Under the pieces are notes generated by a model. That model was not told where the DNA came from and did not search any database. It saw only the letters and a program-made list of their open reading frames with translations. A stretch of 64,000 nt of DNA, from the IMG/VR virus record IMGVR_UViG_3300032214_001462, positions 1 to 64,000 of that record. One strand, given 5' to 3'. Made by a program: the position numbers and the translations under genes. This DNA comes from a virus. Of this stretch, positions 14,587-39,600 are shown piece by piece (the first letter of the stretch is position 1; the number at the start of each line of letters is the position of its first letter).

Positions 14587-14660
14587 TGCCTGCTGACGGA
14601 TTCGAACCGACACTGAACGAGGCTTAAACTCGTCGCCTCTACCAGTTGGGCTAAGCAGGC
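14587..14660 (-). tRNA. trnL: tRNA-Leu(UAA), short variable loop, CCA not encoded
   Basis: Acceptor stem GCCTGCT/AGCAGGC+A; anticodon arm ACGAG-TTTAAGC-CTCGT; T-loop TTCGAAT. Confidence 0.9.
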
Positions 14661-37516: not shown

Positions 37517-37615
37517 ACATATAAGTTCACTACCTGCTAAAATTTGTGTTAGATAAGACACGTGTGTCTTTATCTTTCACCCGATAAAAACACTGACACT
37601 GGAGGATAAACCAAG

Positions 37616-39600
37616 GTGTTTATTGATAGCTAGTTCAGATCCTGGTAGGTATGACCCTTCAAGATTTGGTAAATAGCTCCGTGATTGCAATCAAATTTTT
37701 CGGCAATTTTTCTATAAGAAAGACCAGCCTCTTTTAAAGATTTGATTTGATTCACGTCACCCGAAGAAAACTTTCTCAAAGACTTCTTCGGTTTTCCTTT
37801 ACTGGCAAAGCCATTGTTTTTATAACAACCACTTTCCCAGGCTCTTGTTAAATTCTCTTGTTTGGTAACAATCTCAAGATTGTCAAGATAATTATTTCTC
37901 TTGTCATTATCTTTGTGATCAACTTGCAAGGAAAAGTTACTGGTTCCATGAGAACGCAGATCTAATCCTAAAAATGCAACTGCCATCAAGACATGAAGAT
38001 GAAAACGCTTTCTCTTCCCGTCAACAAGAACTGAGATGCGGTCGTAAACACTGGTTGAACTGATTGGAATCTCTAAAAAATATTCTTGATTATCGGGATC
38101 AAGTTGTTTTTCAAAAGCTTTTCCTTCTTCAGTTAAGTAAAGATTACCAAATCCTGGAACAAGTTTTGGATTCATGTTGTTCATAAACAAGTTTCCAAAT
38201 AGTAACATGCCTCAACTGAACGCTCAACGTTGTCACCTCACCGAGCAATCGATGAGTGCAAACCGGATGAATTCAGGGAAGCCCTAACGTAAAGACGAGG
38301 GTAATCCTGAGCCAAGCCAATCAAGCGTGATTGGAAGGTGCAGAGACTAGGCGGCTGGTGACGCTTCACCTGTAATACGCCATTAGCGTCCGGCATCCCA
38401 CAGGGATGAAGAGATAGTCCACCCCTCTAAGAAACTAGAGACCAGGAGAACGATTTTCCAAAAATCTTGGGTGCGGAACTTTATCGCCCCCACCCTGCTT
38501 ACATCGCAGAAATGGCAGTCGAGCCTGTGGTCGTTCACGACTTCACTCGTCAGCCCGGTCAAACTGTTCAGTTAGATCGCTATAAGTTCTGGGGTACCCC
38601 TGGTACTAAGGACAGCCGTGAGCGTATTGCCGATCAAACCATCGGTACCGCTAACAGCCGCAACATCACGAAGGAGAAAGTCCTTGTGGTGCTGAAGGAG
38701 TACACTGGCCCTGCAGACCCGGGTGATCCGACTCAGCCTTCTACCTTCAAGATTGCACGTGAAACTCTGATTACCGCCCAGCGTCTTCTGCTGGACACCG
38801 GTAACCTGAATATGTTCCACCAGTCGATCGGTAGCCTGACGCTGCTTGACGACTATCGCCGTTGGCGTGATCGCGTGTTCATTGATGAACTCGCCAAAGC
38901 AGAAGCCAATGGTGCTGCCTCTACTACCCAAGGCGGTTACTACTTCCCTGGTGCTAAGACCAAGAACGCTTCTGGTCAGATCACCTATACCTCTGATGAG
39001 TACACCGCAGAAACTCAGCAGTTCCAAGTGCGCACCGATCTTCTGACTGTGGTCAAGGATCTCCGTAAGCGCAACACTCCTACCTTCGCTGATGGTCTGT
39101 ATCGCTGTATTTGCGATCCAACCTTCATGATGCACCTGCGTCGTGATCCTGACTTCCGCGAAATCGCACGTTACTCCGGTAACCCTGGCCAAGGCATGTA
39201 CATGGGCAACCCCATGATGCCTAACAACGCCAGCTTCTACATGGGTCCCCAGGCTGGTCAAGGTTACTTCCTGGCTGGCGAACCTGTAATGCCTACTGGC
39301 GTGCAGTTCGAAGGTGTTAAGTTCTTCGAGTCGACCAACTTCCCGACCAAGAACGTCAGCGCTTCGTTCAACAACGGTTCTACCTACACCTCCCAGGAAG
39401 TTGCACAAGGCTACTTCTTTGGTCCTCAGTCCATCGGTGTTGGCATCGGCGGCCCTAATGCCCAGGTGCTCATCAACAACAACGATGACTTCAGCCGTTT
39501 CATCATCCTGATCTGGCAACTGTATGCAGGCTTCGAGATCCTGAACAAGGACTTCGTGACCACCGCATTCAGCTTCGTTCAAGACGACGGCAACATCTGA
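37616..39600 (+). CDS. Major capsid protein, spliced (exon 1 37616-37627, exon 2 38449-39600; about 387 aa)
   Basis: GGAGG at 37601; GTG-TTT-ATT-GAT joins in frame to AAC-GAT-TTT-CCA-AAA-ATC-TTG giving MFIDNDFPKILGAELYRPHP; strongly biased codons; position after scaffold. Confidence 0.85.
37628..38448 (+). mobile_element. Group I self-splicing intron (821 nt)
   Basis: 5' exon ends in U; intron ends in G; IGS CGUU-G-UCA at 38228-35; P3 CCGGAUG/CGUCCGG; P AAUUCAGGGAA, Q AAUCCUGAGC, R CAGAGACUA, S AAGAGAUAGUCC. Confidence 0.92.
37630..38184 (-). CDS. HNH homing endonuclease, antisense inside the intron
   Basis: HVLMAVAF...VDHKDNDKRNNYLDNLE...EN plus C-terminal HTH; extended -10 TGtTACTAT about 15 nt upstream. 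Confidence 0.88.
   Translation of the reverse strand: MNNMNPKLVPGFGNLYLTEEGKAFEKQLDPDNQEYFLEIPISSTSVYDRISVLVDGKRKRFHLHVLMAVAFLGLDLRSHGTSNFSLQVDHKDNDKRNNYLDNLEIVTKQENLTRAWESGCYKNNGFASKGKPKKSLRKFSSGDVNQIKSLKEAGLSYRKIAEKFDCNHGAIYQILKGHTYQDLN

Follow-up and report, generated by a model that had tools for sequence, protein, structure and literature searches.

How could a phage make its major capsid protein when 821 nucleotides (nt) separate the fourth codon of the gene from the fifth, and an endonuclease gene occupies the opposite strand of that interval? The question is raised by positions 37,616 to 39,600 of the window, the 64,000-nt stretch of DNA analyzed here (positions 1 to 64,000 of IMG/VR record IMGVR_UViG_3300032214_001462). 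The window belongs to a virus genome of 80,662 bp that is complete and has terminal repeats. Among cultured phages its nearest relative is S-EIVl (KJ410740), a polar freshwater Synechococcus phage with a capsid protein 87% identical to the product of the open reading frame (ORF) downstream of the insert, here called exon 2, and the host of the insert is an S-EIV1-like freshwater cyanophage. An earlier note, made by a model from the sequence alone, read the insert as a group I intron with an antisense HNH gene looped out of it, and every sequence feature that it named is present at the position it gave. Comparison with related loci leads us to the same reading: the insert is very probably a mobile group I intron, placed after capsid codon 4 and carrying the HNH gene in the loop of its P1 helix.

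Exons and start codon of the capsid gene

Using the 80 nearest capsid loci in IMG/VR as a population sample, we determined how the gene reads with and without the insert. S-EIVl, which lacks it, has a single ORF that begins at a GTG behind the Shine-Dalgarno (SD) sequence GGAGGA and reads MFIDTDFPKILGAELYRP. The same GGAGGA stands at 37601-37606 (+) in the window and is invariant in intron-bearing and intronless alleles. It is followed, as in S-EIVl, by the rest of the leader and by GTG TTT ATT GAT (37616-37627, +), the coding part of exon 1, which specifies MFID. The 821 nt come next, and AAC GAT TTT CC resumes at 38449, the first base of exon 2 (NDFPKILGAELYRP... to the stop; 38449-39600, +). 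In intronless alleles exon 1 directly adjoins exon 2. The predicted ligated exons (MFID-NDFPK) are the sequence of these alleles, in S-EIVl and in 58 of the 80 IMG/VR loci; alignment to intronless relatives was a check named in the earlier note.

Across the junction, differences within the first dozen codons (codons 2-12) are synonymous only, and natural variants include GAC at codon 4 and AAT at codon 5. A start at TTG 38467, the codon used by ORF finders and the outcome that the earlier note had set against its own reading, is contradicted by this pattern and by the relatives, in which the codon is CTT, CTC or TTA. From these alignments we conclude that the true capsid gene is in two exons, with its predicted start at GTG 37616; the 12-nt first exon described in the earlier note stands.

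The exon-2 ORF matches PHROG 1357, 'major head protein' (E 1e-16, residues 31-373), and the gene stands after a portal-like virion-protein gene and a scaffold-like gene. The capsid and portal assignments come from PHROGs; Pfam gave no families for the capsid, the portal or a 180-aa ORF. Gene callers will truncate a two-exon capsid gene of this kind, and the S-EIVl record misannotates the region. In KJ410740.1 the full capsid ORF (L001:3086-4237) is not annotated. Within L001 3011-4237 a 253-aa minus-strand 'hypothetical protein', a shadow ORF, is listed over the 5' part of the capsid gene, and only the last 156 capsid codons are annotated on the plus strand.

Intron boundaries and ribozyme core

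The predicted intron spans 37628-38448 (+; 821 nt), from the base after the U of the 5' splice site to the terminal G, with both boundaries taken from the intronless alleles. Rfam model RF00028 matches 38203-38441 (+) at 95.5 bits (gathering score 50, E 2e-23, full model 1-253). This is the only group I intron match in the whole genome, and ten related loci score 71-102 bits against the same model. The match begins at 38203 because the model cannot span the 577-nt loop. A U (37627) precedes the 5' splice site and the last base of the intron is G38448, as group I chemistry requires; this omega G is invariant in 28 distinct sequences. An in-frame UAG lies two codons into the intron (37631-37633, +), as the earlier note had read, and the alleles whose intron lacks the ORF have a UAA stop seven codons in. 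A stop soon after the 5' splice site is usual for group I introns (PMC3073962). The model score, together with a GAT-AAC junction identical to that of the intronless alleles, upholds the placement of a group I intron after codon 4.

The ribozyme core occupies 38236-38440 (+). Its helices are P2 (38237-56), P3 (38263-69/38387-93), P4 (38273-78/38305-10), P5 (38281-85/38298-302), which is a simple hairpin, P6-P6a (38311-39), P7 (38343-49/38415-20), which is invariant in the alignment, P8 (38394-408) and P9 (38425-40). An extra 32-nt hairpin (38350-38381) lies between P7 and the 3' strand of P3 (P3'). It occurs in two completely different versions, each self-complementary and fully compensated.

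Pairs were counted on an alignment of 28 distinct ribozymes, with P10, P2-P6a, P7, P8 and P9 derived by hand. The core contains 59 pairs, with 95.3% of cells paired. Both sides have changed in 28 of the 59, a count reached by 0 of 500 shuffles, and controls in which the partner was slid by 1-3 columns gave at most 12.

Guide sequence and long-range helices

The internal guide sequence (IGS) CGUUGUCA (38228-38235, +) consists of CGUU, which pairs with exon 2 in P10, and GUCA, which pairs with exon 1 in P1. The exon strand of P1 is UGAU, the last 4 nt of exon 1 (37624-37627), and includes the U37627-G38232 wobble. In P10 the AACG of exon 2 pairs with CGUU, and in two sequences both partners have changed, from G-C to A-U.

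The first 17 close copies gave no covariation for P1, its extension or the pairing with the intron tail, because all three are invariant there. Diverged intron copies located by a pattern scan supplied the covariation tests for these elements, and the long-range pairings were tested by the L083/L087/L169 lineage, whose capsid and HNH proteins are 69% and 61% identical to the window type, respectively. P1 (exon and IGS) reads AUUGAU / GUCA in the window type and AUCGAU / GUCG in the L083 type, and the exon base at position -4 (ATT or ATC) tracks the A or G of the IGS in all five intron forms. Each of the two exon pairings that the earlier note assigned to the IGS, P1 and P10, therefore has compensatory changes.

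The P1 extension joins GUUCAG (37633-37638, +) to CUGAAC (38216-38221, +). In the L083 type the strands are ACUCAG / CUGAGU, with two compensatory double changes. The long stem proposed in the earlier note is thus retained in its 6-bp GUUCAG/CUGAAC part, which covaries, but not in its 3-bp AGC/GCU part, which is not kept in L083/L087; the GCU strand doubles as part of an antisense -35 element described below. A second helix joins UCCUGGU at the 5' edge of the loop (37640-37646, +) to ACCAGGA in the 3' tail (38441-38447), which with the terminal G ends the intron (38441-38448, +). Here the L083 type has UCCUGAU / AUCAGGA, a G-C to A-U exchange, so the complementarity that the earlier note had pointed out shows a compensated change in L083/L087/L169. 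On the loop side the exchange alters a Tyr codon of the antisense gene synonymously, and the compensating change falls in non-coding RNA. The minimum free energy (MFE) fold of the full-length RNA contains the loop-to-tail helix, and the fold of an ORF-less allele contains the P1 extension. An alternative MFE pairing, of GUUC with G/AAC over the 3' splice site, was rejected; the L083 lineage gives it no support.

The UCCUGGU strand is missing from the minimal introns L100, L154 and L088. Neither the P1 extension nor the loop-to-tail helix is found in the minimal introns, whose tails have diverged, and therefore the two helices go with the insert. The insert is accordingly accompanied by two helices of its own, one that clamps the base of the loop over 6 bp and one of 7 bp that joins the 5' edge of the loop to the last bases before the terminal G.

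The antisense HNH gene and its putative promoter

The antisense ORF (37630-38208, -) matches Pfam HNH_3 (35.5 bits, cutoff 24.8) and PHROG 59 (E 3e-25). Its protein also matches the homing endonuclease I-HmuI (PDB 1U3E; E 3e-5, 27 bits) over both the HNH region and the C-terminal helix-turn-helix (HTH). The D-H-K-D...N-N...N motif aligns with 1U3E and is conserved in 15 copies. In the C-terminal region the Pfam families HTH_38 and HTH_23 do not reach their cutoffs (22.4 and 18.6 bits), and the region is covered by the 1U3E alignment and by PHROG 517. Annotated phage relatives of the protein are ~30% identical.

All 15 complete copies keep an open 181-codon frame, free of indels, from the Met of MNPKLVPGFG (38175-38173), the only start conserved in every copy. 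The upstream ATG at 38208 is not conserved, and this 'ATG' is the TG of an extended -10 element. We annotate the gene as a 181-aa HNH homing endonuclease gene of the I-HmuI type (37630-38175, -). Across the 15 copies the median pairwise ratio of nonsynonymous to synonymous substitution rates (dN/dS) is 0.11, with dS up to 0.6, and by this comparison the gene is intact and under purifying selection. Its last six codons and stop overlap the 5' structural elements of the intron, and it is the only credible minus-strand gene within a ~30-kb plus-strand block. An HNH gene of the HK97 packaging type was ruled out: 72% of alleles lack the gene, which is I-HmuI-like with a putative HTH and is placed within an intron.

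A putative sigma-70-like promoter for this gene lies at 38199-38227 (-), composed of a -35 element TTGAGC (38227-38222), a 17-nt spacer, a TG (38207-38206) and a -10 element TACTAT (38204-38199). Read on the plus strand, the -35 is the linker that separates the P1 extension from the P10 guide. All 15 ORF-bearing copies have TTGAGC, TTGACT or TTGAGT, 15-17 nt, and TAnnnT, with TGn before the TAnnnT in 14 of them. Positions T1, A2 and T6 of the -10 are invariant while the inner bases vary freely, and the motif is kept in two lineages that share only 61% identity in their HNH proteins. The case for a promoter is made by this conservation and not by a consensus scan. What the earlier note called the gene's own extended -10 promoter thus holds as a conserved motif, though not as a call by the scan, whose outcome is given below.

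Allele series and probable mobility

The intronless loci, 58 of the 80, have exactly the GAT-AAC junction, and the other 22 bear the intron. Fourteen of the intron-bearing loci are complete with the antisense ORF, two (L003 and L042) are ORF-less, and six are cut by a contig end inside the intron. Insert length across the population is 0, 229-348 or ~810-827 nt. Five of the truncated contigs (L008, L019, L020, L026 and L047) stop within the intron just upstream of exon 2, and the sixth, L027, begins further upstream, within the HNH gene. The ends of the first five are probably assembly breakage where intron-bearing and intronless strains share a sample.

The ORF-less introns of L003 and L042 are 276 nt long. 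They have the same 5' end as the window intron (AGCUGGUUCAG GUCCUGGU), then a 17-nt hairpin, CUGAAC-GCU and the guide sequence. Between L003 and L042 the hairpin shows compensation, and in the window the ORF takes its place. In the distant capsid lineage L100 the intron is 229 nt long and its P1 is a plain 4-bp helix with a 10-nt loop, while L154 and L088 have small P1 hairpins; the minimal introns of L100 and L154, of 229-233 nt, are at the same site. Because ORF-less and minimal introns occupy this site, the HNH ORF is best explained as an insertion into the P1 loop, in agreement with the looped-out position that the earlier note gave it. The population holds all the predicted stages of a homing cycle: the empty site, the minimal intron, the endonuclease-bearing intron and the intron from which the endonuclease has been lost.

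We also placed intron state on a capsid tree of 82 rows, built from the 850 nt at the 3' end of the gene. At least 13 changes of state are needed, at least 10 of them forced by well-supported branches, and near-identical capsids differ in intron state. Shuffled states needed a mean of 19.9 changes, and 0 of 500 shuffles were as low as the observed 13. This patchy distribution is what a cycle of homing and loss would be expected to produce.

Other inserts occur deeper in the capsid gene. Further inserts of ~0.9 kb follow exon-2 residues 44 in L100, ~85 in L153, and 14 and 44 in L088, each with an ORF on the sense strand that is LAGLIDADG-like (LGDGCL motif) and with an in-frame stop directly following a U. 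The deeper insert of L100 (original coordinates 1906-2798, -) has a weak group I match of 39 bits (E 3e-8), below the Rfam threshold. With up to three intron sites, the capsid gene in this lineage has the look of a hot spot for introns. Separately, L158, L159, L164 and L181 (67% capsid amino acid identity) have a related ribozyme with the same exon-2 end position. Upstream of it lie two or three antisense ORFs over 1.3-1.9 kb, one of them a distant HNH, and no recognisable exon 1 or guide sequence was located.

Metatranscriptome contigs and points against the proposed reading

We searched 24 RNA runs stored as contigs, which hold at most 0.26 of the sampled words, with the likeness set to 88%. 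The freshwater metatranscriptome run X12 has a contig of 187 nt in which 37627 is joined exactly to 38449. A second contig in the same run contains the intron with the HNH gene, at a depth similar to that of the joined contig. Run X1, which is probably DNA, holds the intronless form at high depth. The X12 joint is ambiguous because intronless DNA alleles are abundant; the joined contig is compatible with splicing but does not discriminate. The contigs give no strand and so carry no information on an antisense transcript.

Several points weigh against a spliced, mobile intron or against parts of that reading. An intronless phage could account for the X12 joint, as DNA may be present in the library, and the short side of the joined contig is 29 nt, found at 88% likeness. 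Both the activity of the endonuclease and its target site are predictions. The consensus promoter scan made no call of the antisense promoter (8 of 12 matches). Support for the loop-to-tail helix comes from a single compensated position that differs between two lineages, and the helix would compete with the conventional P9.0 pairing beside the terminal G. Finally, patchiness could partly reflect capsid-gene recombination or intron loss, besides homing.

Other features of the region

A putative promoter for the capsid gene itself, with an extended -10 (TGCTAAAAT; 37535-37543, +), was found by the consensus scan, and the same TGCTAAAAT stands upstream of the intronless S-EIVl capsid gene. The capsid 5' leader also contains a hairpin that lies outside the intron (37551-37575, +; read from sequence). 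It is kept in S-EIVl with a compensated stem, GACAC/GUGUC versus GACAA/UUGUC. The pair could represent a late promoter with a structured leader, or else a bidirectional terminator, and is independent of the intron. Elsewhere in the window a tRNA gene (Rfam 53 bits) lies at 14587-14660 (-), in the minus-strand early arm.

Proposed mechanism and alternatives

We propose that the capsid pre-mRNA would fold so that P1 offers U37627 to the catalytic core, where guanosine would attack. P10 and the loop-to-tail helix would then bring in the 3' splice site, and ligation would yield an mRNA reading MFID-NDFPK. Because the endonuclease gene is antisense, no ribosome would translate inside the intron of the pre-mRNA. 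The enzyme would be made from its own sigma-70-type promoter, whose -35 lies in the linker adjoining the guide sequence. During a mixed infection it would nick or cut intronless capsid alleles, and repair would copy the intron in (homing).

The purpose for which the endonuclease is kept could differ from homing. It may be maintained mainly for harming co-infecting intronless relatives by cutting their capsid gene. Strong purifying selection (dN/dS 0.11), in a population where most alleles are empty targets, would fit such a role. There is also a precedent in the PhiPA3 intron endonuclease, which is reported to act in phage-phage interference competition (PMC11620839). However, purifying selection and a patchy distribution are equally expected under ordinary homing, and the competition and homing roles are not exclusive. 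We regard harm to competitors as a possible but unlikely main reason for keeping the gene.

The intron and its antisense gene might also double as a regulatory device that sets the timing of capsid synthesis or damps it. With an exon 1 of only 12 nt and an SD 10-15 nt upstream of it, an initiating ribosome, with a footprint of the usual size, would occupy the exon strand of P1. A ribosome loading at the GTG, 12 nt ahead of the 5' splice site, and a formed P1 would in that case be mutually exclusive. The conserved antisense promoter points toward exon 1, and a minus-strand scan between the HNH stop and the capsid leader found no terminator-like site. Antisense transcription could then run through exon 1 and the ribosome-binding site, and it might affect the capsid mRNA of co-infecting intronless phages. 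Interplay between ribosomes and splicing is documented for T4 introns (PMC3073962). Against this, 72% of related phages are intronless and the minimal introns lack the gene, so any such regulation is dispensable, and selfish-element biology suffices to explain the features. We consider a regulatory role improbable, and regulation of the capsid by antisense transcription is speculation. The claim in the earlier note that splicing gates capsid synthesis holds trivially, in that the gene depends on being spliced, and no further.

A more elaborate proposal concerns the two long-range helices. GUUCAG/CUGAAC and UCCUGGU/ACCAGGA, which are confined to forms carrying or once carrying the endonuclease insert, could form an undescribed three-way 'splice-site clamp' that couples ribosome loading, splicing and endonuclease expression. 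The terminal G would be the linker between the loop-to-tail helix and P10, and both splice sites would be held together across the 577-nt loop. The start codon, 12 nt from the 5' splice site, and the convergent promoter in the guide-sequence linker would take part in the coupling. We find such a coupling device still more doubtful than regulation in general.

Two further explanations were considered. In the first, the ribozyme would be a decaying, non-splicing relic, with the capsid protein starting at TTG 38467 or ATG 38512 and the upstream GTG-TTT-ATT-GAT lying outside the protein. The ORF listing does start the capsid ORF at TTG 38467. However, that codon is not kept in relatives, the intronless alleles have a continuous ORF from the GTG behind the same SD with only synonymous variation in codons 2-12, the core helices are kept by compensatory change, and exon base -4 covaries with the guide sequence, all of which makes a relic very unlikely. 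Least credible is a free-standing HNH gene upstream of a short intron with a 5' splice site near 38209, an arrangement that the start of the Rfam match at 38203 might suggest but that is refuted by the ORF-less and intronless alleles: the DNA beside 38209 is the antisense of the HNH 5' end and no exon sequence, ORF-less alleles join the same 5' end (AGCUGGUUCAG...) straight to the core, the stem spanning the ORF covaries, and the intronless allele fixes the 37627/38449 junction.

Comparison with known systems

A capsid intron with an antisense endonuclease, a layout known experimentally from one mycobacteriophage, would with this reading also be found in a widespread freshwater cyanophage lineage (~28% of sampled alleles). 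Public metagenomes here provide a natural series, with compensatory changes in every helix, for the invasion of a ribozyme loop by an endonuclease gene and the adaptation of the RNA to it. With only 12 nt between start codon and splice site, the locus is also an unusually direct place to study competition of ribosome with ribozyme. The 12-nt distance from start to splice site, the two covariation-backed clamp helices and the whole homing-cycle series make the locus of moderate interest to specialists. The known categories are unchanged by it.

The ribozyme core resembles the cyanobacterial tRNA-Leu(UAA) introns of subgroup IC3. They share an exact 16-mer spanning P4'-P6, in addition to P4, P6 and J6/7-P7 sequences, and the 16-mer and motifs were read directly in tRNA-Leu introns of Calothrix, Raphidiopsis, Nostocales and Limnothrix (five named loci). 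Both have a compact core without P5abc, and the P2 and P9 GNRA loops of the window intron were read from its sequence. Unlike the tRNA-Leu introns, the window intron lies in a phage protein-coding gene and has an extra P7-P3' hairpin and an extended P1 with an ORF. Helices P7.1/P7.2 between P7 and P3' are a trait of subgroup IA in the Michel-Westhof classification. The likeness to IC3 introns claimed in the earlier note is therefore borne out for the shared sequence motifs but not for the extra hairpin, which sits at a subgroup IA position. With IC3 sequence motifs beside an IA-type hairpin, we assign no subgroup. The hairpin CCCUAACGU-AAG-CGAGGG forms P5 in the window (38281-38302), and a near-identical sequence is found at P8 in tRNA-Leu introns (L223, L272 and L235). 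It is speculation on our part that this hairpin is a portable module resembling a tetraloop receptor.

Group I introns of cyanophages have been described in psbA (S-PM2 and S-CBWM1) and in the gene for DNA polymerase in Pf-WMP3, whose intron encodes the nicking HNH enzyme I-PfoP3I (PMC3428280). The window core is 69% identical over ~180 nt to the annotated psbA intron of S-CBWM1. The described cyanophage introns are in photosynthesis and replication genes, with endonucleases that are sense-strand or free-standing, and none is beside a start codon, whereas the window intron is in a structural gene. In a 2014 review of bacterial group I introns, the words antisense, opposite and capsid are absent (PMC3984707).

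Antisense homing endonuclease genes with their own promoter are known from nuclear ribosomal DNA group I introns, such as Dir.S956-2 of Didymium with I-DirII, and insertion of such genes into peripheral loops, P1 included, has been documented there (PMC3679873, PMC3073962). The Didymium type belongs to eukaryotic nucleolar ribosomal DNA and involves expression by RNA polymerase II, a spliceosomal intron and a poly(A) tail. In contrast, the window intron belongs to a bacterial virus, interrupts a protein-coding gene and has a putative sigma-70-type promoter.

For the enzyme, the best match among solved structures is I-HmuI, from the DNA-polymerase intron of Bacillus phage SPO1 (PDB 1U3E). Both proteins are encoded in phage introns and are of similar length (174 versus 181 aa), and the HNH motif (DHKD-N...N) and C-terminal HTH are aligned. 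The similarity is low, however (27 bits). I-HmuI is encoded on the sense strand of its intron, and the activity of the window enzyme is predicted.

Capsid-gene introns are on record in the lactococcal phage Tuc2009 and in mycobacteriophage LittleE. The major-capsid intron of LittleE, of ~820 nt, undergoes splicing in vivo, and its endonuclease is encoded by gene 14 of the bottom strand (Pope et al. 2013, PMC3706429). This published intron had been missed in the earlier note, and in view of it the layout is less exceptional than that note suggested. The likeness is extensive: in both tailed phages a ~820-nt intron in the capsid gene follows an exon ending in U and itself ends in G, a homing-endonuclease ORF lies opposite the capsid strand, close relatives are intronless, and related introns without the ORF exist. 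The differences are in the enzyme, which is LAGLIDADG-like in LittleE and HNH of the I-HmuI type in the window, and in the evidence. Efficient splicing of the LittleE intron in late infection was shown by reverse transcription PCR and N-terminal sequencing, and that of the window intron is inferred from sequence. The intron type of LittleE was described by its authors as 'unclear, most likely group I', and the window intron has a clear RF00028 match with covariation. The window intron is further distinguished by a site only 4 codons from the start, an ORF mapped to the P1 loop and a cyanobacterial host. The layout has already been shown in one mycobacteriophage, and the window is a further example of it.

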